Numbered from the stretch's first letter, positions 6,328-53,568 are shown. The stretch is DNA of 53,624 nt from an uncultured Candidatus Saccharibacteria bacterium (GCA_964518755.1 CAZFHH010000002.1:6796-60419), one strand, 5' to 3'. Numbers and translations: made by a program. The notes: a model not told the origin generated them from the sequence alone.

Positions 6328-6359
6328 ACAAGCGAGTGTGCTTACGCACACTCGCTTGT
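6328..6359. repeat. perfect palindrome, 14-bp arms, TTAC loop
   Basis: ACAAGCGAGTGTGC-TTAC-GCACACTCGCTTGT. Confidence 0.9.
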
Positions 6360-6420
6360 CTGCTTGTAAATAAAAATTCGAAGTTTCTCAGTAGCTGATT
6401 AGTCTGATATACTCGGCAAC

Positions 6421-8136
6421 ATGAAAGAGAGGATTTATACAATGGTTTCTAATGCTCTTGCAAAGCTTGGGGCAGAGGGCATTGAGTTTGCCGTGGAGTA
6501 TCCACCGGATTTATCGCATGGTGATTATGCGATAAATGCAGCAATGGTTGCGGCAAAACGTCTTGGCAAAAGTCCTCTGGAGCTTGCGGGCAGTCTGGCA
6601 CGAATCATTAAAGATGGTATGGGTGATGATGCCACACATGTTTTCGTTGCCGGACCGGGATTTATAAACATATCTTTCTCGGCGTCTTTTTATGAACATG
6701 TTCTTGAGGAAGCTCTTCGTGCAGGCGATGCGTGGGGAAGCACTGCCATGCTCTCCGGCAAGCGTGTCATCATTGAGTACGCAAACCCGAACCCATTCAA
6801 AGAGATGCACATCGGACATCTCATGGGGGCGATTATCGGTGAATCGTTGGCGCGGCTTTTTGAAAATGCCGGTGCACACACCGCTCGAGATACATTTGGC
6901 GGTGATGTCGGCCCACATGTGGCAAAGGCACTATTCGGATTGAAATATGCACACATTTCCACCCCCGCGAGTTCAAAAGAAATCGGCGAGGCATATGTGT
7001 ATGGTTCACGTGCGTATGAAGACAGCACAGATGTGCGTGAGAAAATTGATAAACTAAATGTCACTCTATACAGTGTTCTTGAAAAGCATTTTAAGAATGA
7101 AAAACTTACCACGGATGAACAGGGGCTGTACGAAACATGGGAAGTTGGCAGAAAGGTTTCAGTGGGTGCGTTTGAGGCGTTATACAAAAAACTTGGCATA
7201 CGGTTTGATTATGTTTTCTATGACAGCGATACCGTAGCTACGGGTCTTGAGGTGGTGGAGCGCGGACTTGCAAGCGGTGTGTTTGAAAAAAGTGAAGGAG
7301 CCATTGTGTATCATGGAGAGAAAAAAGGACTGCACACTCTTGTGTTTGTTACTTCGCGCGGTACTCCAACATACGAAACGAAAGACCTTGGGCTTGCAAT
7401 TCTCAAAGAGAAAAAATTTCCATCGGATAAATCAATCATCATTACAGCAAATGAGCAGATAGGGCATTTTAATGTGGTGCTTTCCGCGCTTTCAGAAATA
7501 GAAAATGCGCTTGCAAGAAAAACTGTGCATGTGTCGCACGGGTTTATGCGTCTTACAACGGGCAAGATGTCTTCTCGCCATGGCACCGTCATCACCGCCT
7601 CAGGGCTTATAGACAACGTCATCGCCATTGCAAAAGAAAAAAATGAAGATGATGAGGTGGCAACAAAGGTGGCGATTGGAGCGATTGTGTATATGGTGTT
7701 GCGTCAGTCGCCCGGGGCGGATATTATCTTTGACCCGGAGAAATCTCTTTCACTTGAGGGGGATTCCGGTCCTTATTTGCAATATGCGCTTGTGCGTGCT
7801 CTTTCCGTGTTGCGCACCGCAAGCAAAGACGGGCGCGGTACCTTGCACGCCGATGCCTCGGCATCGGCGTGCAAGGTACCGCGCGAACCACATGACCTTT
7901 TGCGAATACTGGTACAATTTCCGGATGTGGTGGCATACGCACAAGAGCGCCTCGCCCCGAATTTCCTCGTTACATATCTTACAAAGTTGGCGAGCCAATG
8001 GAATACATTTTATGCAAATGAGCGCATTATTGGCGGAGAATATGAAGAATATACATTGCGTATGGTGCGCCTGTTCGCACAAACGATGAGCAAGGGAATG
8101 AAACTCTTGGGCGTGCCGACACTGGAAAAGATGTAG
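6421..8136 (+). CDS. argS: arginine--tRNA ligase
   Basis: HGDYAIN, EYANPNPFKEMHIGH, KMSSR, EGDSGPYLQYA. Confidence 0.97.
   Translation: MKERIYTMVSNALAKLGAEGIEFAVEYPPDLSHGDYAINAAMVAAKRLGKSPLELAGSLARIIKDGMGDDATHVFVAGPGFINISFSASFYEHVLEEALRAGDAWGSTAMLSGKRVIIEYANPNPFKEMHIGHLMGAIIGESLARLFENAGAHTARDTFGGDVGPHVAKALFGLKYAHISTPASSKEIGEAYVYGSRAYEDSTDVREKIDKLNVTLYSVLEKHFKNEKLTTDEQGLYETWEVGRKVSVGAFEALYKKLGIRFDYVFYDSDTVATGLEVVERGLASGVFEKSEGAIVYHGEKKGLHTLVFVTSRGTPTYETKDLGLAILKEKKFPSDKSIIITANEQIGHFNVVLSALSEIENALARKTVHVSHGFMRLTTGKMSSRHGTVITASGLIDNVIAIAKEKNEDDEVATKVAIGAIVYMVLRQSPGADIIFDPEKSLSLEGDSGPYLQYALVRALSVLRTASKDGRGTLHADASASACKVPREPHDLLRILVQFPDVVAYAQERLAPNFLVTYLTKLASQWNTFYANERIIGGEYEEYTLRMVRLFAQTMSKGMKLLGVPTLEKM
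7833..7884. repeat. 52-bp perfect palindrome inside argS
   Basis: GCGCGGTACCTTGCACGCCGATGCC-TC-GGCATCGGCGTGCAAGGTACCGCGC. Confidence 0.95.
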
Positions 8137-8177
8137 TACAGCCCCGCTTTCGCGCGGAGCGCAAAAGCGGGGCTGTA
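8137..8177. repeat. palindrome right after the argS stop, 19-bp arms, GGA loop
   Basis: TACAGCCCCGCTTTCGCGC-GGA-GCGCAAAAGCGGGGCTGTA, one mismatch. Confidence 0.9.
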
Positions 8178-8256
8178 TCAACAAGCGTGTCTGTGGTATG
8201 TTTTATCGTGGATATGCCGAACCGCCGCCATAACAACAGACATGGAAGGAGACGCC

Positions 8257-8541
8257 ATGAAGATTAAAAAAGTTCCCCGGGAGAAGAATGATACAGTGAC
8301 GAAACCCTCACGTAAGGGACTGAGTATTTATGATATGTTTTTGTGCACCATACACAGATACGGCAAGTCTTTATTACCGGACCCGAAAAATGTCATCGGG
8401 TGTTCCGGAATTATGCCGGTGTATATGCACACATATATACATCAATGCCACTTGAGGGAAAGGGGACCGCAGTACCGCCCGGCGCGGCGGAAAAAATTAC
8501 ACCGTAGCCAGTGCTCCGCTTCGGCGCGCAAGCGCCGGTAG
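8257..8541 (+). CDS. small basic hypothetical protein, paralog A
   Basis: AAGGAG SD before ATG 8257; flanks and motifs shared with 8822-9154. Confidence 0.65.
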   Translation: MKIKKVPREKNDTVTKPSRKGLSIYDMFLCTIHRYGKSLLPDPKNVIGCSGIMPVYMHTYIHQCHLRERGPQYRPARRKKLHRSQCSASARKRR

Positions 8542-8564
8542 ATTGCTACAAGCAAATTCCACAC

Positions 8565-8610
8565 CCCGGGCGCGACACAGTCGTGCCCGGGTTTCCTTTT
8601 TCTCTCATAA
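8565..8610 (+). terminator. hairpin plus T-tract, copy 1 of a 46-bp direct repeat
   Basis: CCCGGGCGCGAC-ACA-GTCGTGCCCGGG-TTTCCTTTTT, identical to 9176-9221. Confidence 0.85.
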
Positions 8611-8821
8611 GGTGGGCGTATACAGTATGAGAAAAATATTAAAATTATAGGCTACTTTGTGTACAAAGAATGTACCAGACATCTCCCTATCAATCGGCAT
8701 ATAAAAATTTCACACGGTGACGTGTCTGTGGTATGTTTTACCGTGGGTGTATAAGATGGTTGACTGGTTGACGGTGGATATGCCGAACCGCCGCCATAAT
8801 GATAGGCAAAAAGGAGATGTT

Positions 8822-9154: not shown

Positions 9155-9175
9155 ACTTACGGCAGAATTTCAAAA

Positions 9176-9221
9176 CCCGGGCGCGACACAGTCGTGCCCG
9201 GGTTTCCTTTTTCTCTCATAA
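9176..9221 (+). terminator. hairpin plus T-tract, copy 2 of the 46-bp direct repeat
   Basis: Identical to 8565-8610. Confidence 0.85.
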
Positions 9222-9239
9222 AGCGCTAATATAAACAAT

Positions 9240-12200
9240 ATGGAGGAAATACCAAAATCAGAAATGGCGTTGCGAGAGGAGGAAACACTTGTTTTCTGGG
9301 AACAGCACCATATTTTTGAAAAGTCACTTGAGAAAACTTCACCGGAAGGAGAGTTTATCTTTTACGAGGGACCGCCAACCGCTAATGGTCGTCCCGGTGT
9401 GCACCACCTTGAAGCGCGCGTATTTAAAGATGCCATTCCGCGCTACAAAACAATGCGCGGGTACCACGTACGTCGTCGTGCAGGATGGGATACACACGGG
9501 CTTCCTGTAGAGCTTGAGGTAGAAAAAGAATTAAAGTTTTCCGGGAAGAAAGATATTGAGCAATATGGTATCGCAAAGTTTAATAAAAAATGTCGTGCAA
9601 GTGTGTTGAAATACATTGATGAGTGGCAAAAGTTTACAGATCGTATAGGCTATTGGGTTGACCAAAGCAAAGCATATTTTACTTATGACGCAACCTATAT
9701 GGAATCAGTGTGGTCAATCTTAAAACATATCAATAATGATAATCGTCTCTATAAAGACTACAAGATTGTGCCGTGGTGCACACGTTGTGGCACCGCATTA
9801 TCATCTCACGAGCTGGCGCAAGGATATCAAGATGTCAAAGACTTGGCAGTTACCGTAGAGTTTAAAGTAATAGGAAAACAAAACATATCATTTCTTGCAT
9901 GGACCACCACGCCGTGGACATTGCCGGGCAACGTGGCTCTTGCTGTTGGCGCCAGCATCACTTATGTAACCGTTGAGAAGAAAGAAAAAGATTCTGATAA
10001 TCCATCGCGCTTTATTCTTGCAAAAGAACGCTTGCGGAGTGTATTTAGTGAAGAAGAGTATTCAATAATTGAGGAACACAAGGGAAGCGAGTTAGTGGGA
10101 ATGGAATATGAACCGATTTATTCGTTTATTCGTGAAATTGCGCCAATTGCCGAGAAGCCAAAATTTAAAAAAGCATTCCACGTATATGCCGCGCCATTTG
10201 TAACAACCGAGGATGGCACCGGCATAGTGCATATTGCCGTGATGTATGGACAAGACGACTTTGAGCTTGGTACTGAGGTGGGATTGCCCAAGGTACATGT
10301 TGTTGCTCCCGATGGGCTTTTTGTCCCGGGCACCGGGTTTCTTGAGGGGCGTTTTGTTAAAGGTGAAGAGCTTGCCGTGGATATTATAAAAGATCTCGCG
10401 CGCAAGGCGGTGCTTTTTGCGAAGGGGAAGTATGAACACACATACCCCTTTTGTTGGCGTTGTAAAACCCCGCTTATCTACTATGCGCGTGATTCGTGGT
10501 ATATCCGCATGCAGGATTTACGAAAAGAAATGGTCGCACAAAATAAACATGTCCATTGGGAACCGGAGCACATTCGTGATGGGCGTTTTGGGGATTGGAT
10601 TGCCGGAGCGAAAGATTGGGCTATTAGTCGCGAACGTTATTGGGGCACACCTCTTCCCGTATGGGAAAATGCAGACGGTAATGAACGAGCAATCATTGGT
10701 TCAATTGAAGAATTAAGACGTCATACTCGCAAAAGCGGAAACACTTATTTCATCATGCGTCATGGGCAAGCGCAAAGTAATGTCATTGGAAAAATCAGTA
10801 CAAAACTTTCCACAGAGAGTAAGGACTCTCTTACAGAAGTTGGGCGCGCACAAGTTTTGCAAAGTGCAAAGGAGCTAAAGGCGCAGGGTTGTGTTGACAT
10901 CATCATCGTCTCGCCGTTTCTTCGTGCGCAAGAAACGGCGAGCATTGTCGCGAAAGAGCTAAGTATTCCAAAAGACGCTGTGCATACTGATGTCCGTTTG
11001 TGCGAAATAGATGCCGGAGAGCTTGATGGCGTGTCGTACGAAGAATGGCGCGCTTTTTTCCCGTCTGTTGAAGACAGGTTTATCAAGACGCCCCCCGGCG
11101 GTGAATCCTTTAATGATGTACGTATTCGTGTTGCGCAATTACTGTATGAAATTGAAAAGCAATATAAAGGAAAACGAATCCTTTTGGTATCGCACGAAAG
11201 TCCGTTATGGATGTTGCAACTTGCCGCACTTGGCATATCGGGCGGTGATGAAAGTGTTCCAGTCAAGTATGGCAATGCACAGTGGGGTGTGATTGATTTC
11301 GTCTCACTTCCGCACAATGAAAATTATGAACTGGATTTACATCGCCCATATATTGACGATGTCGTGCTGGTTTCAGACAAAGGAACGGAGCTTCACAGGG
11401 TTAAAGAAGTTATTGATGTGTGGTTTGATTCGGGTGCCATGCCTTTTGCTTCCGAGCACTATCCGTTTGAAAATAAGAAGTGGGTTGAAGGAGTCGGGTA
11501 CCCTGCGGACTTCATCTCTGAGGCGATTGACCAAACGCGTGGGTGGTTTTACACGCTTCTTGCGGTCGGCACTCTTATGGGGCGTGGGATGGCATATAAA
11601 AACGTCATTAGTCTCGGGCACCTGCAAGACGAAAATGGACAAAAGATGTCCAAATCAAAAGGTAATATTATTAAACCGTGGGAAGCTATAGATAAGTGGG
11701 GCGTTGATACGCTTCGTTTTTGGATGTATAGCGTCAATCAGCCTGGTGAGGCAAAGAGCTTTGATGAAAAGACCGTGCGCGAAGCGGCGCGGATACTTTC
11801 TTGGTTTGAAAATAGCGCAAAGTTTTATGAACTCTTTAAAGACCACGTGTCCAACGAGGAATCGGAGCCAAAAACAATTGATCAATGGATGCGGTTGCGT
11901 ACGCAACAAACGGTGCGTGCGGTTACAGCCCATTTTGATAACTATAAATATTTCGACGGTGCGCGTGCCATTGCAACATTGCTTGAAGATTTATCTCAAT
12001 GGTATGTGCGACGAATTCGTGACAGGGCGCGCGAGGGTGACCGCGCTGTTATTGAAACACTTCGTGAGACATTGCACACTATAGCGCTTCTTATCGCTCC
12101 GCTTTCACCATTTATAGCTGAACGAGTATTTCAGAATGTTCGCAAAAATACCGATGTGGAAAGTGTACATCTTGCGCGGTGGCCGGAAGGAGTTGCATCA

Positions 12201-12707
12201 CTTTATACATATATAGTGCACGCAGTTTCAAAAGAAAGTGATGACAAATTGCTTTCCGACATGGCTCATGCCCGTGCGTTCGCTTCTGAGGCACTTATGC
12301 TTCGTCAAAGGGTTGGAATAAAAGTGCGCCAACCTCTTGGTGCGTTGTACATTCCGGGAGAACTTTCCGATGATCTTGCTTCAATACTCGCGGAAGAGGT
12401 AAATGTAAAACATGTCAAAACCAATGCTCCAAAACTGGAGCTTGATACCGCACTTACCGAAGATCTTATTCACGAAGGGGATGTACGAGAATTTTCGCGC
12501 GCCATTGCTTCGGTGCGCAAAGAAATGGGACTCTCCCCGACGGATACGGTTTCGCTTTCAATTGAAGCGTTGGCACAACAGCGCATGGGTGGTGTCGTGT
12601 TTGCCGGGGTGTCGCACGTTGCGTTTGTGTCTGTGGAGGAGTGCAAGCATAACGTGACTCTTTCGTCGGGCATCGTTCATTTTTCAATTCAACACAATGC
12701 GTCATAA
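9240..12707 (+). CDS. ileS: isoleucine--tRNA ligase (type 2) with inserted histidine-phosphatase domain
   Basis: EGPPTANG, GWDTHGLP, WTTTPWTL, PFCWRCKTPLIYYA, KMSKS; internal FIMRHGQAQSN...VSH domain. Confidence 0.96.
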   Translation: MEEIPKSEMALREEETLVFWEQHHIFEKSLEKTSPEGEFIFYEGPPTANGRPGVHHLEARVFKDAIPRYKTMRGYHVRRRAGWDTHGLPVELEVEKELKFSGKKDIEQYGIAKFNKKCRASVLKYIDEWQKFTDRIGYWVDQSKAYFTYDATYMESVWSILKHINNDNRLYKDYKIVPWCTRCGTALSSHELAQGYQDVKDLAVTVEFKVIGKQNISFLAWTTTPWTLPGNVALAVGASITYVTVEKKEKDSDNPSRFILAKERLRSVFSEEEYSIIEEHKGSELVGMEYEPIYSFIREIAPIAEKPKFKKAFHVYAAPFVTTEDGTGIVHIAVMYGQDDFELGTEVGLPKVHVVAPDGLFVPGTGFLEGRFVKGEELAVDIIKDLARKAVLFAKGKYEHTYPFCWRCKTPLIYYARDSWYIRMQDLRKEMVAQNKHVHWEPEHIRDGRFGDWIAGAKDWAISRERYWGTPLPVWENADGNERAIIGSIEELRRHTRKSGNTYFIMRHGQAQSNVIGKISTKLSTESKDSLTEVGRAQVLQSAKELKAQGCVDIIIVSPFLRAQETASIVAKELSIPKDAVHTDVRLCEIDAGELDGVSYEEWRAFFPSVEDRFIKTPPGGESFNDVRIRVAQLLYEIEKQYKGKRILLVSHESPLWMLQLAALGISGGDESVPVKYGNAQWGVIDFVSLPHNENYELDLHRPYIDDVVLVSDKGTELHRVKEVIDVWFDSGAMPFASEHYPFENKKWVEGVGYPADFISEAIDQTRGWFYTLLAVGTLMGRGMAYKNVISLGHLQDENGQKMSKSKGNIIKPWEAIDKWGVDTLRFWMYSVNQPGEAKSFDEKTVREAARILSWFENSAKFYELFKDHVSNEESEPKTIDQWMRLRTQQTVRAVTAHFDNYKYFDGARAIATLLEDLSQWYVRRIRDRAREGDRAVIETLRETLHTIALLIAPLSPFIAERVFQNVRKNTDVESVHLARWPEGVASLYTYIVHAVSKESDDKLLSDMAHARAFASEALMLRQRVGIKVRQPLGALYIPGELSDDLASILAEEVNVKHVKTNAPKLELDTALTEDLIHEGDVREFSRAIASVRKEMGLSPTDTVSLSIEALAQQRMGGVVFAGVSHVAFVSVEECKHNVTLSSGIVHFSIQHNAS

Positions 12708-17759: not shown

Positions 17760-19202
17760 ATGGCGCGTTATTTTACCACCACACTTCCTTATGTGAATGC
17801 AGACCCGCATCTCGGGCACGCCCTTGAAATGGTGCAGGCCGATGTGCTTGCGCGCGTAGCGCGCACACAAGGCGAAGAAGTTTTTTTTAATTCCGGTACC
17901 GATGAGCACGGACAGAAAATTCTCCGCGCGGCGCAAAAAGTAGGGCAAGATGTGCAAGAGTATGTAGACCACTATGCAAAACAATTTGATGCGCTTCCCA
18001 AGGCTTTGGGAATTTCCGAACATGCTTTCATTCGTACCACTGCTCCTTCTCACGTTATTGCCGCACAAGAAATGTGGCGTCGATGTGCCGATGCCGGAGA
18101 TATTTATAAAAAATCTTATACCGGTTTATATTGCGTGGGCTGTGAGGCATATAAAACAGAAAAAGATTTAGTGAATGGCGAGTGTCTTGACCACGTCGGC
18201 ACTCCACTTGAAAAAATCACGGCAGAAAATTATTTTTTCAAGCTTTCAAAATATGAGAAGCCGTTGCGTAAATATCTTAAAAGTGGAGAGGTGATTGTTC
18301 CGTCGTGGCGTCTGCAGGAAGCACTTGATTTTGTAGAGGCCGGACTTGAAGATTTCAGCATTTCGCGCGAAAAGACGCGCCTTTCGTGGGGAGTGCCAGT
18401 CCCCGATGATGACGCGCAGGTGATGTATGTGTGGTTTGATGCTTTGACGAACTATATCTCAACGCTTGGGTGGCCACAAGATAAAGAGGGTAATTTCAAA
18501 AAGTTTTGGGAAGAAGGGCAGACGCTCCAAATGGCCGGAAAGGATCAAGTGCGTTTCCAGTCAATCATGTGGCAGGCGATGCTCTTGTCTGTCGGTATCA
18601 AAAATACCGACCAAATATTTTATCATGGTTTTATAAACTCGGGTGGGCGCAAAATGAGTAAATCCATAGGCAACGTCATCAATCCGTACGAGCTTGTTGA
18701 GAAATACGGTACCGATGCCACTCGCTATATGCTCTTGCGCCATGTGCACCCGGCGCAAGATACTGATATTACATGGGAGCGTATGGACGAATGGTATACC
18801 GCGAACTTGGTAAATGGATTGGGAAATTTTGTGGCGCGAGTGATGACTCTCTCTCAAGCGCACTTAAGTGAGCCGGTTGTCGTGAGTGATATTTTAGGAA
18901 AAGACGCAAAGGACATTTTTTTGAAGCTGGGCGCATTTCATTTTAATGAAGCTCTTGATGGTATTTTTGCAAAGATGAGTGTTGCTGACGTTCACATAAC
19001 AAAGACAGAGCCATATAAAAAAATCAAAAGCTCCGATGAAAGCGAGAAAACGCAAGCGCGCGGTGACATCACGGAGCTTGTGCGCACGTGTGCGTCTATC
19101 GGTGCGGACCTTGCGCACTTTATGCCGGAAACATCAGAAAATATTTTAAATGCCGTACGCACAAACACGAAGCCGGGAAATCTTTTCCCCCGGCTCGCGT
19201 AG
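17760..19202 (+). CDS. metG: methionine--tRNA ligase, short form
   Basis: YVNADPHLGH, GTDEHG, YVWFDAL, KMSKSIGN. Confidence 0.97.
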   Translation: MARYFTTTLPYVNADPHLGHALEMVQADVLARVARTQGEEVFFNSGTDEHGQKILRAAQKVGQDVQEYVDHYAKQFDALPKALGISEHAFIRTTAPSHVIAAQEMWRRCADAGDIYKKSYTGLYCVGCEAYKTEKDLVNGECLDHVGTPLEKITAENYFFKLSKYEKPLRKYLKSGEVIVPSWRLQEALDFVEAGLEDFSISREKTRLSWGVPVPDDDAQVMYVWFDALTNYISTLGWPQDKEGNFKKFWEEGQTLQMAGKDQVRFQSIMWQAMLLSVGIKNTDQIFYHGFINSGGRKMSKSIGNVINPYELVEKYGTDATRYMLLRHVHPAQDTDITWERMDEWYTANLVNGLGNFVARVMTLSQAHLSEPVVVSDILGKDAKDIFLKLGAFHFNEALDGIFAKMSVADVHITKTEPYKKIKSSDESEKTQARGDITELVRTCASIGADLAHFMPETSENILNAVRTNTKPGNLFPRLA

Positions 19203-19213
19203 CGAGCCGGGGG
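19187..19213. repeat. palindrome centred on the metG stop codon
   Basis: CCCCCGGCTCGC-GTA-GCGAGCCGGGGG. Confidence 0.9.
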
Positions 19214-21523: not shown

Positions 21524-21687
21524 GGTCGGACTTGCAGGATGCAGGTCCGACCTATTTGTTTATATGATGTCAATAAAGTCGGACATTGAATGTCTGACTT
21601 TATTGACGGTTTATTTTTGGGTGATGGTGTGTTGTTTAACAGCTCCGTCCATTGTTGCCTTCGGCAACAATGGACGGAGCTGTTAAA
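21524..21687. repeat. three consecutive palindromes (21524-21552, 21569-21607, 21635-21687)
   Basis: Arms of 13, 19 and 25 bp; loops GGA, G and TTC. Confidence 0.93.
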
Positions 21688-23330: not shown

Positions 23331-23459
23331 CAGCCCGGGAAATTTTGGACATCCTCCAATGTCCAAAATTTCCCGGGCTGCTATGCTTAAGCCTTTTGTA
23401 GAATATAAAATAACCCCGGCAAAGTCAGACATTCAATGTCTGACTTTGCCGGGGTTATT
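23331..23459. repeat. two perfect palindromes (23331-23380, 22-bp arms; 23409-23459, 25-bp arms)
   Basis: Both have GACAT/ATGTC at the stem tip. Confidence 0.95.
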
Positions 23460-34177: not shown

Positions 34178-34256
34178 TAGCAAAAAGAAAGAACCCCCTC
34201 ACGGGGGTTCTTTCTTTTTGCTACACAAAACCACCCCGAAGGGGTGGTTTTGTGTA
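34178..34256. terminator. two abutting palindromes, probable bidirectional terminators
   Basis: 21-bp arms with TCAC loop; 16-bp arms with GAA loop; A/T tracts in the arms. Confidence 0.85.
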
Positions 34257-34288: not shown

Positions 34289-34426
34289 GTTAATGGGGTC
34301 AGGAGCCATTTATTTATTTCACGAAAGGTCGGGCTTTCCATATACTGTTGGGAAAAATATCGGACATCCGATGTCCGATATTTAGATGTCCGATATTTAC
34401 TGTTAATGGCTCCTGACCCCATTAAC
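34289..34426. repeat. REP/REPIN-like element: 22-bp inverted repeats enclosing an internal palindrome
   Basis: GTTAATGGGGTCAGGAGCCATT (34289-34310) and its complement (34405-34426); internal AAATATCGGACATC-C-GATGTCCGATATTT with one arm duplicated. Confidence 0.8.
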
Positions 34427-37136: not shown

Positions 37137-37173
37137 ATAACCCCCGCGTGGACTTCGTCCACGCGGGGGTTAT
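37137..37173. repeat. perfect palindrome, 17-bp arms, abutting an extended -10
   Basis: ATAACCCCCGCGTGGAC-TTC-GTCCACGCGGGGGTTAT followed by GCTATGAT. Confidence 0.92.
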
Positions 37174-37189: not shown

Positions 37190-38020
37190 ATGCGCATATC
37201 AAAAAATAAAATAACCGGAGGAATATACGTTGTTGTGGGGGTTGTGATTATTATTTTCGCATTTCATTTGCCTTCAGGTTTTGGTGAGGGCTTTGCGGTG
37301 CGCGGTTTTTCGGCGACAGCAACTTCTACGGTGAAATCTTCGGCGGGGACATCGTCTGTTGCAACCACTTCATCAGTCACAGCCCCTGTGGCGGTGCGAA
37401 GCACCGCCACAGGGGCTGTGAAGTCATTCTCAATTGATCCGCGCGACATTAATTTTTCATGGGAGCTTTCGGGCACAGCACCAGCGTCAGTCATTGAAAA
37501 AGCCAAGAAGGAAATCAGCTCACTTACAAGTGAGCTTCATAAAGGAAAATATCCCGATTACGATATCTATCTTCAGCTCGGGCAAGAATACGAAATCCTT
37601 AACAAGGGCAAGCAAGCATATGAAAATTATCACACCGCAGCGTCGCTCTCGCCAAGCCGGGGTGTGGCGATGAGTAACATCGGCTCGCTCATGGCGCGCA
37701 TCGGTGCACTTCATACCGCGCAAAATGCCTATGCGCAGAGTGTCGCGCGACAGCCGGAGGTCTCTTTATTTTGGGTATTGTATCTTAAGTTTCTCGCGCA
37801 GTATGAAGCGCGCACAACGACAACTCCCGCAGTGTTTGCGCATGCGCGCAAGGCAACCAACAACAACGCAAATGTGCTTATTACAGAGGCACAATGGCTC
37901 GCCTCCATAGGGCGCAACAAAGATGCGATTTCCGATTGGAAAATTGTGCGCGCAAACGTGCCCGCACAACAGCAAAAAGCGATTGATGAACGTATCGCAA
38001 CCCTTGAATCTAAGATATAA
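37190..38020 (+). CDS. membrane-anchored TPR-repeat protein
   Basis: N-terminal TM, Ser/Thr linker, YLQLG..A..Y..A TPR patterns. Confidence 0.8.
   Translation: MRISKNKITGGIYVVVGVVIIIFAFHLPSGFGEGFAVRGFSATATSTVKSSAGTSSVATTSSVTAPVAVRSTATGAVKSFSIDPRDINFSWELSGTAPASVIEKAKKEISSLTSELHKGKYPDYDIYLQLGQEYEILNKGKQAYENYHTAASLSPSRGVAMSNIGSLMARIGALHTAQNAYAQSVARQPEVSLFWVLYLKFLAQYEARTTTTPAVFAHARKATNNNANVLITEAQWLASIGRNKDAISDWKIVRANVPAQQQKAIDERIATLESKI
37377..37421. repeat. 45-bp perfect palindrome inside CDS
   Basis: TCACAGCCCCTGTGGCGGTGC-GAA-GCACCGCCACAGGGGCTGTGA. Confidence 0.95.
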
Positions 38021-38038: not shown

Positions 38039-38206
38039 ATGTCAGACGATATACAAAACATCGATACGCCCACACCACCATTGCCGGCGAACAATAAGCT
38101 ACCTCTTTCTTCGTATGTATTGGATTTCATAAAATATGTCAGTGGCTTTACCGTAATCATAATCATCGCCATCATTTTAATTCACACTGTAGCCAAATAC
38201 ACTTAA
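38039..38206 (+). CDS. 55-aa single-TM protein, absent from the ORF track
   Basis: MSDDIQ..YVSGFTVIIIIAIILIHTVAKYT*; -10-like box directly upstream. Confidence 0.6.
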   Translation: MSDDIQNIDTPTPPLPANNKLPLSSYVLDFIKYVSGFTVIIIIAIILIHTVAKYT

Positions 38207-38224
38207 AAGGGGTCTGACCCCTTT
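38206..38224. repeat. REP-like mini-palindrome AAAGGGGTC-T-GACCCCTTT
   Basis: Shares GGGGTC/GACCCC with the 34289 repeat family. Confidence 0.6.
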
Positions 38225-38336
38225 GTTTTCTTAAAAATGTGGTGTAATTTGTATGTAAGGCGGGGTTTTACAAAAATGGAGCGATGGGGATAACTTTCGT
38301 TTGTTTAATGTATTATTTGCTACACTGTAAGTATCT

Positions 38337-39866
38337 ATGAATGACCAACTGGTTTCTCATATAAAACAACGACTTGCGCAAAATATGCTTCACGATGATA
38401 TCGTGAAGGAGCTTCTTGTCGCCGGATGGAAGCAGGAGGATGTGGATGCAGCGTTTGGTATTGCGCAAGGAAGTCCGCAGTTCCCGTCGGTTGCGCCGGC
38501 GGCGCAACCGACGGGGGTGGCTGAACAGTCCGCCCAAACTCCAATTGTGCCTGACACAAACCCGGCTGAAACGTACTCGGCTCCAATCACCATGTCAGCG
38601 ACATCCACAGACACCGCAAGAACAGCAGACGGTGGCGCCTTCGGCGCCACCGTCTCCCCAAACAAGCTTCCCGGTGTTTTCGCCTTATTAAAAGGCGGTT
38701 TTGCTATTTACAAAGAGCGGCTGGGCGTGTTGGTCGGCATTGGAGCAATGCGGTTTTTGCTTTCGCTTTTCTTTGGTGGTCTGATTATTGGAAGTGTCGT
38801 ATTGGGCATAATCCTTCTTGTACACCCATCAGTGATAATTACATTTGTTTTTGCAATAATCACGCTTCTGATTGTGGCGGTGATGGTGTGGCTTTTATTT
38901 TGGATCACATTGGCTGGCATGCAAGCCATTCGTGGGCACAAAGAAGAAGTCACTTTTGTCACGGCGTTTGGTAGCGCCCGTTCGCTCGTGTGGTCTTTCT
39001 TGTGGCTTTCAATTATTGTAGTACTTGTAAGCTCGGGAGGTATATTTATTTTTTCCATATTGCCGGGAGCACTGCTTGCGCTTCTGGGATTCCTCTCGCC
39101 CGTCGCGCTTATAATTCCAGGCATATACCTTGTGGTATCTCTTGCAATATTTGCATCATTATTTGGTACTTGGTTTATTTTTTCCGGGTGGGTATTTTTG
39201 ACGGAGTCACTGCGCGGTATCCATGCACTTATGGCAAGCAGGGAACTGGTGCGTGGTCGTTTCTGGAAAATATATGGGCGTGCGTGGGGAATATTTTTCG
39301 TTATCGGATTTGGCATGTGGGTATTCAAATTTGTGTTTACACTTATTTTGTTTTTTATTCCGATGGTATCAGGTATTGTGGTAATGATTGCGAGTATGTT
39401 ATTTTTCATGCCATTCGCACTCGCAACAGTATATTTCCTATATGAAAATGTGCGTTTGCAGGTGCCTGTTATTCCAGAATCTCCACCAAAAGTACACAAA
39501 GCATTCGTACCGTATGCCATAGTTGGTGTCGTAGCGGTTATTGCATTCTTAATGTTACCGCCGATTATTTCAAGCTCACTTCATCATGCACGACAGATAG
39601 GGAACGACGGCACAATCAAGAGTGATGTGTCCACAATGCAACTGCAACTGGAGATTGATGGAGGGGTCGCTCCCGGTACTTATCCGGTATCACTTACTAA
39701 AGCTGCACAAGCCGACCCGACCATTGCCATACTACTGAAACATTTGCAAGAGAGTGGTGCACACTACACCTATCAAAGCACGGGAAGCACCTATACTTTT
39801 TGCGCGACACTTAGCACCGGCTCACAATTTTGTGCTAATTCATCCGGGAAAACTTTTACAAAATAG
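38337..39866 (+). CDS. multi-pass membrane protein with C-terminal pilin-like domain
   Basis: About 7 TMs; SSLHHARQIGNDGTIKSDV..YP..YTFCATL..FC resembles a pilin head; palindromes at 38483-38515 and 38627-38655 in the linker. Confidence 0.8.
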   Translation: MNDQLVSHIKQRLAQNMLHDDIVKELLVAGWKQEDVDAAFGIAQGSPQFPSVAPAAQPTGVAEQSAQTPIVPDTNPAETYSAPITMSATSTDTARTADGGAFGATVSPNKLPGVFALLKGGFAIYKERLGVLVGIGAMRFLLSLFFGGLIIGSVVLGIILLVHPSVIITFVFAIITLLIVAVMVWLLFWITLAGMQAIRGHKEEVTFVTAFGSARSLVWSFLWLSIIVVLVSSGGIFIFSILPGALLALLGFLSPVALIIPGIYLVVSLAIFASLFGTWFIFSGWVFLTESLRGIHALMASRELVRGRFWKIYGRAWGIFFVIGFGMWVFKFVFTLILFFIPMVSGIVVMIASMLFFMPFALATVYFLYENVRLQVPVIPESPPKVHKAFVPYAIVGVVAVIAFLMLPPIISSSLHHARQIGNDGTIKSDVSTMQLQLEIDGGVAPGTYPVSLTKAAQADPTIAILLKHLQESGAHYTYQSTGSTYTFCATLSTGSQFCANSSGKTFTK

Positions 39867-39878
39867 AAATATGAAGAA

Positions 39879-40685
39879 ATGCCAATCATACTGTATTTAG
39901 CACTTACAATTTTTTCAGCTTTGTGGGTTCGCAAAGATGCAAAAAACTTTAGAAGGATGGGTGTTGATGTAAACCCTGCCGTTTGGTCAACCCTTGTTTT
40001 TCTTTTTTGGATTATTGCGTTTCCTCTGTATTTGGTTTTGAGATTTTCAAAATATAAAAAATTGGTAGAGAGTGGCAATCCGCCACTCGCGCCTGTGTCA
40101 AAAGTTCATAATTGGTGGATAGTAATAATATTGATAGGCATTCCTTTTGCTATCATATTATTTTTTCTTTTACAGTCACTCATAATTGCAGGCGAAAGAG
40201 CTCATAATGTGGGAGTGAGTACTCAGACTACCGTTTCAAATCCTTCAACCTTAAAGACCTATACAAACACCAGGTATGGTTTTTCATTTCAGTATCCGGC
40301 AGGCTTGAGTGTTGTGCAAATCAACCCGGCGTCTTATGGAGATAGAAAGGCACTGGAAATGTTTAAGGTATATGATGCACAATACACAGCGCCCAAGGGC
40401 GCCGTGGGGCAAACAGTGCGTGCTCAATTACGAAAAGTACAATTTACCGTGTATCCATACTCAAGCAAACTTTTTGACTCTTTGCAAAATGAATATAAGG
40501 ATGCGTCACGTGGCGTGCATATCGCAAACCACACCATTACCATGGATACCTATAAGCCGATTAGCGGGCTCATAGGACCATACTTTGAGGCGATTTTTCA
40601 TAATAATGCCTATATAATCATGGTATCCTCTGTTGACCATGATGAACTTGCGACACAGATTCTCCACGCGTTTCGTTTTGAGTGA
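39879..40685 (+). CDS. membrane protein with C-terminal PsbP-like domain
   Basis: Three TMs; KTYTNTRYGFSFQYP ... QILHAFRF pattern. Confidence 0.8.
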   Translation: MPIILYLALTIFSALWVRKDAKNFRRMGVDVNPAVWSTLVFLFWIIAFPLYLVLRFSKYKKLVESGNPPLAPVSKVHNWWIVIILIGIPFAIILFFLLQSLIIAGERAHNVGVSTQTTVSNPSTLKTYTNTRYGFSFQYPAGLSVVQINPASYGDRKALEMFKVYDAQYTAPKGAVGQTVRAQLRKVQFTVYPYSSKLFDSLQNEYKDASRGVHIANHTITMDTYKPISGLIGPYFEAIFHNNAYIIMVSSVDHDELATQILHAFRFE

Positions 40686-41903: not shown

Positions 41904-42031
41904 AGCGGGCTCATAGGACCATACTTTGAGGCGATTTTTCATAATAATGCCTATATAATCATGGTATCCTCTGTTGACCATGATGAACTTGCGACACAGA
42001 TTCTCCACGCGTTTCGTTTTAAGTGAGAAGT
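41904..42031 (+). repeat. 128-bp direct repeat, copy 2 (orphan gene tail)
   Basis: Single difference G40680/A42021; preceded by hairpin ACTGTGGAAGTC-C-GACTTCCACAGT (41844-41868). Confidence 0.97.
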
Positions 42032-43384: not shown

Positions 43385-43425
43385 AAAATACCCCCGCGAC
43401 GGCTCCGCCGTCGCGGGGGTATTTT
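43385..43425. terminator. perfect palindrome, 19-bp arms, probable terminator
   Basis: AAAATACCCCCGCGACGGC-TCC-GCCGTCGCGGGGGTATTTT. Confidence 0.85.
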
Positions 43426-44884: not shown

Positions 44885-44922
44885 GAAACCCCCGCCCGCG
44901 CGACAGCGCGGGCGGGGGTTTC
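44885..44922. repeat. perfect palindrome, 17-bp arms
   Basis: GAAACCCCCGCCCGCGC-GACA-GCGCGGGCGGGGGTTTC. Confidence 0.92.
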
Positions 44923-46229: not shown

Positions 46230-46266
46230 AAAATACAGGCGACTACGCAGTAGTCGCCTGTATTTT
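46230..46266. repeat. perfect palindrome, 17-bp arms
   Basis: AAAATACAGGCGACTAC-GCA-GTAGTCGCCTGTATTTT. Confidence 0.92.
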
Positions 46267-47181: not shown

Positions 47182-48069
47182 ATGGCAAACCGTCACTTAG
47201 CCCGTACCATCGTTTTACAAACACTCTTTGAGTGGGATACAACCGATACCGCCAACGATAAAGCAAATGCCATTCTCCAAAGAAATATCCGTGAGCATGA
47301 CGGAGGTGATACCGATGTTCCATTTATGAATACGTTATTCCCCGGTGTGCTCGCCAAACAGAGTGATATTGATTTAATCATCTCTCACGCCGCGCCGGGA
47401 TGGCCAATTGATAAGATAGCTCCTATTGATAGAAATATCCTTCGGCTGGGTTTGTATGAATTGTTATTTTCGGATAGAAAACAAATTCCGGCGAAGGTTG
47501 CCATCAATGAGGCGATTGAACTTGCAAAAACTTTTGGAGGTGAATCATCGGGGCGTTTTATAAACGGAGTGCTTGGTACGGTATACAAAGAAATCGGTGA
47601 GCCGGGGAAAAATGATGCGAGCAAACATCGCCAAAGAAAAGACCCACTACCAATTGAGCAGTTGGTGGGTGCGTTGGTATATGCAAAACATGAAGGGCAA
47701 TATTATTTGGCTCTTTTGCATGATGTGTTCGGGCACTGGACTCTTTCAAAGGGGCATATCTTGGAATCCGAATCTGCAACCGATGCGGTGATGCGAGTGG
47801 TTAGAGAGGAAACCGGGCTTTCCGGCGCGGTGGAAAATCTTGTCGGCAAAAATGAATATGTCGCCTCACATCCGGAAAAAGGAAAGATGCTCAAGCAAGT
47901 CTCATTCTTTCTTGTTTGCGCCTCTTTCGCAGACATCACATTGAAGAGAAGCGGTGGGCTTGATGACGCGCGTTGGTTTAAGATGCAAGACATCCTTGAC
48001 CTTAATTTTTATGATGATATGCTCCCCATCGTTACATCGGGAGTGCAGGTACTTGTTGATCGCGCTTAA
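47182..48069 (+). CDS. nusB: NusB fused to a C-terminal NUDIX domain
   Basis: DRNILRLGLYEL, INEAIELAK, FINGVLG; then KGHILESESATDAVMRVVREETGL. Confidence 0.93.
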   Translation: MANRHLARTIVLQTLFEWDTTDTANDKANAILQRNIREHDGGDTDVPFMNTLFPGVLAKQSDIDLIISHAAPGWPIDKIAPIDRNILRLGLYELLFSDRKQIPAKVAINEAIELAKTFGGESSGRFINGVLGTVYKEIGEPGKNDASKHRQRKDPLPIEQLVGALVYAKHEGQYYLALLHDVFGHWTLSKGHILESESATDAVMRVVREETGLSGAVENLVGKNEYVASHPEKGKMLKQVSFFLVCASFADITLKRSGGLDDARWFKMQDILDLNFYDDMLPIVTSGVQVLVDRA

Positions 48070-48819: not shown

Positions 48820-51048
48820 ATGACGCGCCACATGTTAAAAAGGGTTGAAATTACAGGCTTTAAATCTTTTGCAAAAAAGACGACACTTGATTTCTCATCA
48901 AGTGTTACATCTATTGTCGGACCGAACGGCTCCGGGAAATCAAATGTTGCCGAGGCATTTCGTTTTGCGCTTGGTGAGCAATCAATGAAAAATATGCGCG
49001 GTAAGCGAAGCGAGGATCTTATCTTTAATGGTTCGCCAACGACACCGCGCACCAATCGCGCGGCGGTTGCGATTATTTTTGATAATACATCGCGCGTGTT
49101 TAATCTTGATTTTGACGAGGTTCGCGTAGAGCGCGCCGTATTTCGCGACGGGACGAGTGAATATACGATTAACGATTCAAAAGTACGCCTGCGCGATATC
49201 CATGAATTACTTTCAAATGCCAACATTGGTGAGAGTGGGCACCACATCATCGCTCAGGGCGAGGCGGATAGAATTTTGCTCGCCAATGCACGACAAAGAA
49301 GAGAGATGCTTGAAGATGCGCTCGGGCTTGCGTCATACGAATTCAAAAAAAATGAGGCACAACGCAAGCTTGAAAGAACGCGCGAAAACATTAGGCAAGT
49401 TGATGCCTTGCGCAGAGAACTTTCCCCACATGTTCACTTTCTTCAAAGGCAGGTTGAGAAGCTGGAGCGTGCGGATGCAACGCGCGATGAGTTGAGCACA
49501 TTGGGTGCAACATACTTTGCGATTGAAGATGCGTATATCGCTCTGGAGACAGAAACCGCCACTATCGCACTCGCTTCCGCAAAAGAAAAGCTCGCCGTAC
49601 TTTCGTCAGAACTCTCCGCGTTGTCTGTAGCGGTTGATAAAGATGATGAAGGCGAGAGCTGTGCGAGAGCTGTGCGTACTGCAGAAGAGACGCTTGAAAA
49701 AATAACCGCGACACACAATGCTCTTGTAAGAGAGATGGGTAGAACAGAGGGTGCACTTGGTGCGATGCAAGATAGAGAAAAATCACTTGGCGATGATCCG
49801 TGTGTACGCATTGCTCGTGATGATATTTCAATGCTGTTTGATGAAGTGCAAGAACGAGCATCGGAAGCGCTTGATGGAGACGCGTCAAAACTGCGCGTCG
49901 CTCTTGTTTCCGTTCGCACGATAGTAAAATCATTTTTTGAACGGTTTGGTTCTACAACTGAAACAGAGATGTTGCTTGACGATAATGAGCAAAAACTTCA
50001 CGCACTTGAGCAACAAAAGGCGATACGAGAACAAGAAGAAATTGCTCTTGGTGGTGAGGTTGAAAAATCGCGTAATGCGGTATTGCGAGCGCGCGAAATA
50101 TATTCCGCGCATGAAGAAGCTGGTAGGGAAGGACAACGGAGAAGCATTGCTCTTGCACAACAAGAGGCTCATGCTCAAGCGTCAGTGATGCAACAGGAAA
50201 CACGATTGGACGCGGTATCAAAGCGCAGTGAAAGATGCGAACATGACAAGGCGGGACTGCTTGCGTTGGTGGGACCTTCCGCTGTTTCGTATGAGCCGCG
50301 CACAGAGGTGTCGCAGGAAGAATATGCAGAGCAAGACAATCGCTCGCGCTCCATTGAAAGATTCAAAATTCGTTTGGAAGAATTAGGTGGCACCGGCGAA
50401 GATATTCGCAAAGAGTATAAAGATGTATCACAGCGTGAAAATTTCCTCACCACAGAACTTGAGGACCTTTCACATTCTGCCGATATTTTGCATACACTCA
50501 TTGATGAGATTGATGGTGAGGTTGCGAAAAATTTTGCCGATGGGCTGGAGCACGTGAATGAATCATTCAGCGCTTTCTTTTCTCTTATGTTTGGGGGAGG
50601 GTCCGCACGGCTTATTCTTGAAGAAGATGATGTTACGGACGACGACGATGAGAATGAGAGTAATTTTGATAGTGCAACAGGGAACAAAAAGCCAGGGGTT
50701 GAAGTGGTGGTGCACATTCCAAGAAAGCGCGTGCAGTCACTTTTGCAACTTTCAGGTGGTGAGAGGGCGTTGGCATCTATCGCACTTATTTTTGCAATGA
50801 GCCAAGTGAACCCTCCGCCATTTTTGATATTGGACGAAACGGATGCAGCGCTTGATGAGGCGAACAGCAGGAGATATGGCGACATGATAGAAAATCTTTC
50901 CAAAAAATCACAGCTCATTGTCATCACACACAACCGCGAGACCATGAGCCGTGCTGGTATTTTGTATGGAGTTACGATGCACGGTGACGGCACATCAAAA
51001 CTGCTTTCCGTTAAGTTTGATGATGCGATTACTGTTGCAAAACGATAG
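48820..51048 (+). CDS. smc: short SMC-family ATPase (742 aa)
   Basis: GFKSFA, GPNGSGKSN, LSGGE, ILDETDAALDEAN, ITHN; follows rnc. Confidence 0.9.
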   Translation: MTRHMLKRVEITGFKSFAKKTTLDFSSSVTSIVGPNGSGKSNVAEAFRFALGEQSMKNMRGKRSEDLIFNGSPTTPRTNRAAVAIIFDNTSRVFNLDFDEVRVERAVFRDGTSEYTINDSKVRLRDIHELLSNANIGESGHHIIAQGEADRILLANARQRREMLEDALGLASYEFKKNEAQRKLERTRENIRQVDALRRELSPHVHFLQRQVEKLERADATRDELSTLGATYFAIEDAYIALETETATIALASAKEKLAVLSSELSALSVAVDKDDEGESCARAVRTAEETLEKITATHNALVREMGRTEGALGAMQDREKSLGDDPCVRIARDDISMLFDEVQERASEALDGDASKLRVALVSVRTIVKSFFERFGSTTETEMLLDDNEQKLHALEQQKAIREQEEIALGGEVEKSRNAVLRAREIYSAHEEAGREGQRRSIALAQQEAHAQASVMQQETRLDAVSKRSERCEHDKAGLLALVGPSAVSYEPRTEVSQEEYAEQDNRSRSIERFKIRLEELGGTGEDIRKEYKDVSQRENFLTTELEDLSHSADILHTLIDEIDGEVAKNFADGLEHVNESFSAFFSLMFGGGSARLILEEDDVTDDDDENESNFDSATGNKKPGVEVVVHIPRKRVQSLLQLSGGERALASIALIFAMSQVNPPPFLILDETDAALDEANSRRYGDMIENLSKKSQLIVITHNRETMSRAGILYGVTMHGDGTSKLLSVKFDDAITVAKR

Positions 51049-51090
51049 CCCCAAGCAGGCGAGCCCCTGCGGGGCTCGCCTGCTTGGGGC
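51048..51090. repeat. perfect palindrome, 20-bp arms
   Basis: GCCCCAAGCAGGCGAGCCCC-TGC-GGGGCTCGCCTGCTTGGGGC. Confidence 0.94.
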
Positions 51091-51114
51091 GTCCTCGTAT
51101 GGTACCATGGCAAC

Positions 51115-52539: not shown

Positions 52540-52541
52540 GA

Positions 52542-52578
52542 TTGCCCCCCTGCGCGCCGAAGGCGCGCAGGGGGGCAA
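52542..52578. repeat. palindrome, copy 1 of a shared 31-bp core
   Basis: CCCCCCTGCGCGCC-GAA-GGCGCGCAGGGGGG, identical at 53531-53561. Confidence 0.95.
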
Positions 52579-52591
52579 ACCAACAGTAAAC

Positions 52592-53233
52592 ATGAATGCA
52601 GAATTGAAAAATAAGTTACTTAAAATCGCCCGGAAAAAAATCTCACGTGAGGATGTTTCTCATGATTTTGAGCATGCCTTGAGGGTATTATCAAATGCTG
52701 AAAAAATTGCGAGGGAAGAGGATTGTGATCTTGATATCATCGTTCCGTCCGCTTTACTTCACGATTTGATTGTGTATCCTAAAAATCATCCTGACAGACA
52801 CAAATCACAAAAAAAGAGTGCGCAAGAAGCTGGAAGAATATTAAGTGCACTCGCAGGTTTCCCGAAAGAAAAAATAGAAAAAGTAATGAGTTGCATCACG
52901 GAGTGTTCATTTAGTAAGGGAATTATGCCAAAGTTGTTAGAGTCAAAAATTTTACAAGATTCTGACGGGTTGGAAGCGACGGGTGCAATCTCCATTATGA
53001 GAACATATTCTTCAACGGGACAAATGAAAAGGCCTTTTTATAATTCAGAAGATCCGTTTTGCGAAAGTCGCAAACCAAACACGTCAAGCTTTGCCCTGGA
53101 TTTGTTCTATGATAGGCTACTCAGGGTCGCAGAAAGAATGCATACAAAAACTGCAAAGAAAATCGCGAAGAGAAGAACCGATTTTTTGGTTGGTTTCTTA
53201 AAAGAGCTTAAGTTGGAATTGGGGGAGAAATAA
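52592..53233 (+). CDS. HD-domain phosphohydrolase (YedJ-like)
   Basis: HDFEHALRV, ALLHDL, ILQDSDGLEATGA; start moved past the hairpin to ATG 52592. Confidence 0.92.
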   Translation: MNAELKNKLLKIARKKISREDVSHDFEHALRVLSNAEKIAREEDCDLDIIVPSALLHDLIVYPKNHPDRHKSQKKSAQEAGRILSALAGFPKEKIEKVMSCITECSFSKGIMPKLLESKILQDSDGLEATGAISIMRTYSSTGQMKRPFYNSEDPFCESRKPNTSSFALDLFYDRLLRVAERMHTKTAKKIAKRRTDFLVGFLKELKLELGEK

Positions 53234-53288
53234 TTTTTTCAATGAAATTTTACAGGTGGGGATATTCACATACTCACACGTTAACGCT

Positions 53289-53525
53289 ATGTATGAAATA
53301 ATATCTCAAACGGCAATATTTATTTTGGGGGCGAGTGCCATTATCCTCATTGCAAAAAAGAATAGATGGGGTTTTGTTATAGGTTTGTTATCTCAACCGT
53401 TTTGGTTTATTACATCTTATGTGCACCAGCAATGGGGTATATTTTTAGTTAGCATAGTTTTCATGGGAAGCTGGTGTCTCGGTATTTATGAGTGGTTCTT
53501 TAAGGATAAAAAAAGTAAAGAGTAA
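53289..53525 (+). CDS. small three-TM protein, PnuC/SemiSWEET-like
   Basis: RWGFVIGLLSQPFW..QWGIF..GIYEW. Confidence 0.7.
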   Translation: MYEIISQTAIFILGASAIILIAKKNRWGFVIGLLSQPFWFITSYVHQQWGIFLVSIVFMGSWCLGIYEWFFKDKKSKE

Positions 53526-53568
53526 TAACCCCCCCCTGCGCGCCGAAGGCGCGCAGGGGGGGGTTATT
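53524..53568. repeat. palindrome with 21-bp arms, copy 2 of the shared core
   Basis: AATAACCCCCCCCTGCGCGCC-GAA-GGCGCGCAGGGGGGGGTTATT. Confidence 0.95.

Follow-up and report, generated by a model that had tools for sequence, protein, structure and literature searches.

Long perfect palindromes with C-GNA-G loops in a Candidatus Saccharibacteria genome were probably shaped on DNA

Why should the palindromes of a bacterial chromosome so often turn in a loop of sequence GNA closed by a C-G pair? The question is raised by 53,624 nucleotides of DNA (hereafter the window) from an uncultured Candidatus Saccharibacteria bacterium, namely positions G000:C2:6796-60419 of a genome (G000) of 672,743 bp in 29 contigs that is 97% complete. 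The window contains 40 perfect palindromes with stems of at least 10 bp, 14 with a 3-nucleotide loop and 26 with a centre of another length, and 11 of the 14 triloops read C-GNA-G on one strand or the other. A sequence-only reading of the window had listed fifteen palindromes with C-GNA-G or C-GNNA-G loops and proposed that they function as single-stranded DNA (ssDNA) hairpins, with selection or formation acting on DNA independently of transcription. The loops and C-G closing pairs were found at all fifteen positions, fourteen of them in perfect palindromes and the other (8137) in a palindrome with one mismatch. With a probability that may be put at about 0.55, the fine structure of these palindromes was set on DNA, most likely by template switching during replication, nucleated at a d(C-GNA-G) mini-hairpin, which would have remade former terminators and chance quasi-palindromes. 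We infer both that template switching is the process at work and that the loop rule is due to GNA nucleation, from the lines of evidence that follow.

Throughout the genome, every perfect inverted repeat whose loop has 0-10 nucleotides was listed. There are 434 palindromes with stems of at least 10 bp and up to 30 bp (0.645 per kb), as against 9 in a third-order Markov simulation. The GNA enrichment predicted from the window holds genome-wide: 72 of 124 triloops are GNA or its complement TNC (composition predicts 16.5%, p = 1.6e-25), and C-GNA-G makes up 45% of triloops (56 of 124). In short chance hairpins (stems of 5-6 bp) the corresponding shares are 18.9% for GNA or TNC (131 of 693) and 4.6% for C-GNA-G. 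The GNA set consists of C-GAA-G (35), C-GGA-G (10), C-GTA-G (9), C-GCA-G (2) and 16 loops on other closing pairs; its 5′ closing base is C in 56 cases and G in 7, and triloops of the form G..A outnumber those of the form A..G by 72 to 7. The longer the stem, the larger the part of the triloops that is GNA: 14% (3 of 21) at 8-9 bp and 72% (23 of 32) at 21-30 bp. The tetraloop C-GNNA-G, for which the same preference had been proposed, is present at 6328, 34178 and 44885 but is not significantly enriched in the genome (16 of 63 tetraloops are G..A, p = 0.09).

The preferred loop is of a DNA-like and not an RNA-like type, as had been claimed: the 72 GNA triloops compare with 12 GNRA loops among 63 tetraloops, none of which is TTCG, and the GNRA tetraloops show no sense-strand bias. 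A d(GNA) loop on a C:G closing pair is described as the most stable DNA triloop, better by about 2 kcal/mol than on G:C (PMC3201870), and d(GCGAAGC) is reported to melt at 76.5 C and to be bound poorly by SSB (PMC13037366); the GNRA tetraloop is treated as the RNA counterpart of the GNA motif (PMC5815330, where the stability of r(C-GNA-G) is given at second hand). The G000 palindromes share with the d(GCGNAGC) and d(C-GNA-G) mini-hairpins the same tip, with a G..A pair on C:G and usually a GC-rich inner stem. The known natural cases of d(C-GNA-G) are single, strand-specific sites in the origins of ssDNA phages and plasmids and in N4 promoters, whereas G000 has dozens per genome, on either strand and on unrelated long stems, known here from sequence alone.

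The rule recurs in a second species of the same genus (G017, a complete genome of which 400 kb were sampled), where palindromes occur at 0.263 per kb and 25 of 39 triloops are GNA, all of them C-closed (p = 4.6e-11). In 347 kb from other relatives, 15 of 38 triloops are GNA (p = 7e-4). Triloops are few in G003 of the same genus (240 kb, 0.125 palindromes per kb; 2 of 3 triloops GNA or TNC, neither C-closed) and in G028 of another family (160 kb, 0.106 per kb; 0 of 5 GNA). Palindrome density is 2.5- to 6-fold lower in these three same-order relatives than in G000. In 200 kb of the unrelated control Escherichia coli K-12 the density is 0.09 per kb, the longest stem is 14 bp and one of three triloops is GNA.

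The GNA loop of G000 faces either way with respect to transcription, as the sequence-only reading expected: 23 lie on the sense strand and 35 on the antisense strand (p = 0.15), with ratios of 14:18 in the gaps between co-directional genes and 9:17 inside genes. Strict orientation with the transcribed strand, named beforehand as the outcome that would speak against the idea, was not seen. GAA and TTC loops are near 1:1 (18:17), a ratio that would be compatible with loops that flip often. Relative to the G-rich strand, 26 GNA loops are on it and 32 off it in G000, and in G017 the plus and minus strands carry 13 and 12. These ratios do not bear out the proposed function as ssDNA hairpins, for a replication-linked signal predicts a bias to the G-rich strand; the fixed orientation expected of functional ssDNA hairpin signals such as G4, ssiA and N4 is absent.

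A function at the DNA level would have the folded ssDNA or cruciforms act as priming or SSB-excluding signals, as markers of forks or domains or as substrates of proteins, with C-GNA-G selected for the purpose. The telomere hairpins of Streptomyces, reportedly with GNA loops, may be a further case of this kind. Functional ssDNA hairpins with such tips are described at the G4 origin, at ssiA and in N4 early promoters (PMC13037366), the loop type is the one that is stable in DNA, and the same rule operates in G017. This explanation is nevertheless quite unlikely: besides the balance between strands, the arms have no common sequence for a protein to read, a relative of lower GC content (L028) has no hairpin at the site of the palindrome at 51048, and density varies several-fold between G000 and three same-order relatives. 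GC-rich centres generally disfavour cruciform extrusion.

Formation on DNA, the part of the proposal that finds support, agrees with the state of the arms. A mismatch-tolerant scan of G000 yielded 346 perfect palindromes, 19 with one mismatch and 3 with two, and none of the 434 perfect palindromes continues outward through a mismatch. All 25 mismatches are located 3-9 pairs from the loop (P ~ 1e-6 under uniform positions). They comprise 10 A.C, 9 G.T and 6 others, and when oriented to the sense strand there are 6 G.T and 6 A.C, so that no wobble preference is apparent. A selected RNA hairpin would tolerate G.U and lose its basal pairs first, and the pattern in G000 is the opposite. In the 347 kb from other relatives, 100 palindromes are perfect and 11 are imperfect.

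The two arms also change in concert. Between 42 and 52.5 kb the window is syntenic with metagenome contigs of three relatives with 75-80% DNA identity (L024, L025 and L027), in which palindromes stand at the same intergenic sites with arms that are different yet perfect. At sites 42093, 43385, 44885 and 46230, every substitution or indel of one arm has its counterpart in the opposite arm. The palindrome at 43385-43425 (stem 19, loop TCC, which is GGA on the minus strand) has the core CCCCCGCGACGGC-TCC in G000 and CCCCCCGCGCCGGC-TTC in L025, and L024, L025 and L027 have different perfect palindromes at this site. At 44885-44922 (stem 17, loop GACA, C-G closed), the orthologs in L024 and L025 have the same outer arm with another inner arm and loop. 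At 46230-46266 (stem 17, loop GCA), the core GGCGACTAC is common to L025, and the arms differ at three or more positions, all mirrored. In L027, the right arm contains the conserved left flank in inverted form.

The more ordinary hairpins of L028 suggest what stood at these sites before. The hairpins of this relative at the sites of 43385 and 46230 are imperfect; they contain G.T positions and an internal mismatch and are accompanied by T runs. The one at 43385 is T-tailed, the one at 46230 has two G.T positions and a T run, and the core GACTAC..GTAGT is common to the L028 hairpin and G000. Because L028 has imperfect T-tailed hairpins at the same sites, the ancestral state is likely to have been an ordinary terminator that was rebuilt in the lineage of G000.

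Palindromes are also in excess inside genes. Within 467 confident coding sequences, trimmed at their ends, there are 115 perfect palindromes, whereas ten shuffles of synonymous codons, which preserve the protein and the codon usage, gave 4-11 (mean 6.3), an 18-fold excess. In the SHMT gene, a plus-strand palindrome at 3789-3812 (stem 11) lies over the conserved peptide RAKKLFGA and has been perfected through synonymous codons: 11 of 12 pairs are complementary in G000, whereas 6-9 are so in five relatives whose peptide is identical. A second plus-strand palindrome of this gene (4757-4788, stem 15) is in the C-terminal helix, where residues have been replaced and the length is equal to that of relatives. 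A third coding palindrome on the plus strand, in the ArgRS gene (7833-7884, stem 25), occupies a variable linker that is longest in G000.

The position of the intergenic palindromes is that of terminators. Those between co-directional genes (n = 152) lie at a median of 31 nucleotides past the upstream stop codon and 118 nucleotides ahead of the next start codon, and palindromes occupy 30 of 65 convergent gaps, 117 of 434 co-directional gaps and 15 of 60 divergent gaps. Selection at the RNA level alone might account for them as two-way intrinsic terminators or 3′-end stabilisers of extreme stability in a Rho-less bacterium, perhaps of a hot habitat (the sequencing runs that hold DNA of G000 are labelled hydrothermal vent metagenome), in which case the loop rule would reflect stable RNA loops. 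Rho was not found in G000 at its 97% completeness, convergent gaps are the most often occupied, the sites are retained in relatives with classical terminators in L028, and a scan for the terminator pattern yielded 51 terminator-like sites versus 20 ± 4.6 in shuffles.

Most features of the hairpins other than their place do not agree with such a role. At least 6 T within the 9 nucleotides past the GC core are about equally common on the sense strand (28 of 152) and the antisense strand (22 of 152), with means of 3.41 and 3.28; between 34 and 53.6 kb of the window, the large palindromes flagged as terminator-like are mostly so on the minus strand, while the genes are on the plus strand. GNA has no sense excess, G.U is not tolerated, UUCG is absent, divergent gaps also hold palindromes, and the 115 palindromes within coding sequences are where termination would do harm. 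G000 has the GC-rich hairpin shortly past the stop codon that is typical of intrinsic terminators, in a genome where Rho was not found and at sites where a relative has ordinary ones, but its palindromes mostly lack the T run, show no asymmetry between sense and antisense and no RNA-type pairing or loops, reach stems of 20-30 bp and have many copies within genes. Selection on RNA alone is judged unlikely. A related precedent is the hairpin rule of the Mimiviridae, in which unique palindromes at gene ends are reported to mark the sites of mRNA 3′-end processing (PMC4402537). As in G000, which has an RNase III gene, those palindromes follow stop codons and have no U tract; however, the system of these viruses includes polyadenylation and an enzyme dedicated to cleavage, and it leaves the coding palindromes and the DNA-type loops unexplained.

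Template switching on DNA would accommodate these observations as follows. A nascent strand would snap back at a small, very stable mini-hairpin and copy one arm off the other; the first pairs next to the loop would serve as the primer, and the outer arm would then be copied. Repeated copying would keep the arms identical and extend them into the flanks, and chance quasi-palindromes in coding sequences would be turned into perfect ones. C-GNA-G, as the most stable DNA triloop, would be either the best nucleus for snapping back or the best-kept product. The process would be strand-symmetric and is known to invert spacers as a by-product, which would let GNA come to face either way. Mismatches near the loop are expected because the inner pairs prime and the outer arm alone is copied, and an intramolecular switch of this kind likewise entails flawless outer arms, capture of flanks, growth of arms, symmetry of strands and a premium on a fast and stable DNA tip.

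The process has precedents. Quasi-palindrome correction is said to go back to a model of Ripley and to work on E. coli in the laboratory of Lovett. Several features by which template switching is recognized, namely an excess of perfect arms, concerted evolution of arms, extension of arms and action regardless of coding, are present in G000, which differs in its 0.65 palindromes per kb and stems of up to 30 bp from the 0.09 per kb and stems of at most 14 bp in the 200 kb of E. coli K-12. Template switching is presented as the accepted explanation of why perfect inverted repeats are both in excess and conserved in bacteria, as they are kept in Proteobacteria (PMC5941160), and is reported to create and maintain hairpins (PMC8794818) and to lead to homogenisation of arms and inversion of spacers (PMC8604942). 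The claim that selection or formation acts on DNA can be narrowed: the perfect arms, the lack of wobble preference, the concerted change of arms and the excess in coding sequences argue for formation, and selection for an ssDNA function is not favoured. Formation on DNA fits the data better than does selection for such a function.

Several observations weigh against formation by GNA-nucleated template switching. No switch event was seen directly in four sequencing runs (X4, X5, X1 and X2), which contain near-identical strains with contigs broken at the palindromes, and a flipped loop between orthologous palindromes was not found among the few pairs compared. The rule that mismatches lie near the loop is weaker in other relatives, where 11 of 15 are fewer than 10 pairs from it. 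With both DNA and RNA parameters, ViennaRNA assigns an identical energy to every triloop sequence on one closing pair, and the argument from stability consequently rests on published measurements. From the location past stop codons and the retention of sites it is evident that some function is under selection as well, and a selective advantage of stable hairpins could contribute to the loop rule. The gene calls, moreover, are those of a crude model based on open reading frames (ORFs), with 588 genes and 83% coding.

Loss of repair genes was considered as the cause of the abundance of palindromes and rejected. SbcD, MutS and ExoVII-L were not found in the 97% of G000 that is available, but SbcD and MutS were likewise not found in five relatives, including the palindrome-poor G003 and G028, and no ExoVII-L match in them was over the cut-off (G019 has one weak match of 20.8 bits versus a cut-off of 35.9). 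With the same genes unfound in rich and poor relatives, their absence does not explain the richness of G000, a further point against the proposed mechanism, and is at most permissive. ExoI was not found in G000 by a search that detects it in only one of 14 control genomes; RecJ is present.

In the four runs mentioned above, contigs end or overlap at palindromes or in palindrome-rich gaps, with breaks at 34190-34212, 38219-38236, 40592-40650, 41933-41991, 47997-48024 and 52546-52574 of the window. Insertions of CC and GGG at 52544 and 52569 in contigs of these runs probably stem from the similar palindrome at 53524. The possibility that the whole set is an assembly artefact was rejected, as palindromes occur within contigs and are met again at the corresponding sites of relatives. 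A palindrome with a 67-bp stem at a contig end (L024:4521-4656) is probably a fold-back artefact of assembly and was excluded from the counts.

Recognition by an HUH enzyme had also been suggested for the GNA palindromes, and the genome does encode candidates, but these are associated with palindromes of another kind. Of three Y1_Tnp matches in G000, two are intact and the third (C2:3434-3676) has two stop codons. The two intact, RAYT-like genes have as their best NCBIfam match the REP-associated tyrosine transposase, with 35.6 and 70.1 bits, both under the cut-off of 80 bits. The gene for a Y1 (HUH) transposase of 214 amino acids (C8:3040-3684, 35.6 bits; flanked region C8:3007-3893) is flanked by the REP-like family ATATCGGACATC[C/G]GATGTCCGATAT (that is, ATCGGACATC-S-GATGTCCGAT), of which 36 copies were counted genome-wide by the motif GGACAT; one copy, with a non-GNA loop, is in the window at 34355-34383. 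On both sides of the other (C1:8738-9409, 70.1 bits; region C1:8689-9453) is a second family, AAAGGGGTC-N-GACCCCTTT, which has 6 copies with stems of at least 10 bp and is represented in the window at 38206-38224. A third repeated family, CTACTTAGGGGT, with 7 copies, emerged from clustering of arms, and the remaining 385 palindromes have no common arm beyond short GC-rich words. The two families with their Y1 genes are, to judge by their sequences, REP/RAYT-like systems in a genome of 0.67 Mb.

These systems make it conceivable that the GNA palindromes themselves are REP or REPIN elements spread by RAYT-like HUH transposases, and some GNA palindromes do have the inner arm GCGCGCC in common. 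It is very improbable, however: the families adjacent to the RAYT-like genes have 1-nucleotide centres and no GNA loop, the GNA palindromes form no sequence family and are not adjacent to those genes, and a palindrome persists at orthologous sites despite changes in its sequence, which is not the behaviour of insertions.

Other repeated words were observed among the palindromes. In many otherwise unrelated palindromes (C24:3128, C24:3922, C24:4927, C6:2305, C20:3654 and C9:2745 of G000, and 52542 and 53524 of the window), GAA, TTC or TCC is bordered by the inner arm (C)TGCGCGCC or CGCGCGCC; this common arm may have arisen by common descent, by copying between sites or by convergence on a GC-rich nucleus. 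The ArgRS loci of relatives have their own palindromes of the form GGACA..GTC-N-GAC..TGTCC, namely TTGGACAAGTC-N-GACTTGTCCAA in L009 and L012 and CTCTGGAAGGTC-A-GACCTTCCAGAG in L017, and the REP-like family appears to be species-specific.

Beyond being scars of copying, the palindromes might be both made and kept by a lineage-specific DNA process of high rate and put to use as folded DNA. In ultra-small bacteria that lack Rho, GNA-tipped hairpins extruded on one strand or the other would then signal stops with no need of a U tract, or serve as signals in replication or in the nucleoid. Such a double role is quite unlikely; if it were real, the thermodynamics of DNA hairpins would directly write gene borders and some segments of proteins.

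The set in G000 combines known kinds of thing, perfect inverted repeats produced by template switching and the GNA mini-hairpin, in a manner that was not found in the literature searched: palindromes of extreme density follow a loop rule of DNA type, with terminators and coding sequences rewritten, in an ultra-small bacterium. That literature yielded no account in which a loop-sequence rule such as C-GNA-G marks template switching; on genomic GNA loops it gave structural and aptamer papers only and on palindromes or hairpins in Patescibacteria no relevant paper. Parallels exist in the reduced genome of the endosymbiont Blochmannia, whose long palindromes are intergenic (PMC3017870), and in the mitochondria of Nematomorpha, where palindromes lie in coding sequence (PMC6649704). 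These are described as small genomes with reduced repair whose perfect palindromes are long, in part located in genes, and break short-read assemblies as those of G000 do. Blochmannia differs in having 6-20 palindromes per genome with arms of at least 30 bp (PMC3017870), whereas those of G000 are shorter and number in the hundreds, and a loop rule is not reported for either.

A strand-blind loop rule of DNA type offers a test, applicable to sequence only, that separates hairpins shaped on DNA from hairpins selected as RNA, and in G000 it agrees with four independent lines of evidence: the perfection of arms, their concerted divergence, the mismatches near the loop and the palindromes made of synonymous codons in conserved proteins. 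If template switching nucleated by GNA is so active, it would be a major and unlisted source of intergenic structure and of protein insertions in ultra-small bacteria; it would bear on the prediction of terminators in such genomes and would explain the breaks of short-read assemblies at gene borders.

The other palindromes that had been listed from the window are, in order, as follows. The perfect palindrome at 6328-6359 (stem 14, loop TTAC, which is GTAA on the minus strand, C-G closed) is intergenic. The imperfect one at 8137-8177, directly 3′ of the ArgRS stop codon, has a C-G-closed GGA loop and its single C.A mismatch five pairs from the loop. A perfect palindrome at 19187-19213 (stem 12, loop GTA, C-G closed) overlaps the stop codon of a putative MetRS gene. 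That at 21635-21687 is likewise perfect (stem 25, loop TTC, which is GAA on the minus strand, C-G closed). Two perfect, C-G-closed palindromes abut at 34178-34223 (stem 21, loop TCAC, GTGA on the minus strand) and 34222-34256 (stem 16, loop GAA). The perfect palindrome at 37137-37173 (stem 17, loop TTC, GAA on the minus strand, C-G closed) is followed by another at 37377-37421 (stem 21, loop GAA, C-G closed) within a called ORF (37190-38020); the latter may be 5′ of the true gene, since homology with L028 begins just past it. A perfect palindrome at 38627-38655 (stem 13, loop TTC, C-G closed) is inside the ORF 38337-39866, and one at 51048-51090 (stem 20, loop TGC, GCA on the minus strand) begins at the SMC stop codon. 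The last two, at 52542-52578 (stem 17) and 53524-53568 (stem 21), are perfect, have GAA loops and have the arm CCCCCCTGCGCGCC in common. Twelve of the listed palindromes were folded as DNA; each formed its complete hairpin (z between -6 and -13.5), and none of 200 shuffles was as good.

The earlier list omitted three non-GNA triloops in the window, at 13398 (G-TAG-C), 40710 (C-TCT-G) and 42093 (C-TTT-G), as well as the 26 palindromes with other centre lengths. The convergent gap at 23331-23459 holds two large palindromes of 50 and 51 nucleotides, 29 nucleotides apart, of which one (stem 22) has a 6-nucleotide centre flanked by GGACAT, a word of the REP-like family, and the other (stem 25) carries GTCAGACATT-C-AATGTCTGAC.

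The window, with a G+C content of about 46%, is part of the chromosome of an ultra-small bacterium resembling those of the candidate phyla radiation. It is assigned to a cellular chromosome because it encodes aminoacyl-tRNA synthetases, RecA, FtsK and SMC; a phage origin was rejected on the same grounds and on the lack of a megablast match to the putative IleRS gene among 50,697 phage records. Its genes further include SHMT, NusB and a PIF1-like helicase, and its aminoacyl-tRNA synthetases are ArgRS, class I ligases (putative IleRS and MetRS) and a class II ligase (putative ProRS). No tRNA genes or Rfam families were found in the window. The putative IleRS (1155 amino acids, 9240-12707) has a His_Phos_1 domain at residues 504-670 (E = 7e-31), an unusual insertion between the halves of the catalytic domain, and a single ORF of 295 amino acids (47182-48069) fuses NusB with a NUDIX hydrolase domain.

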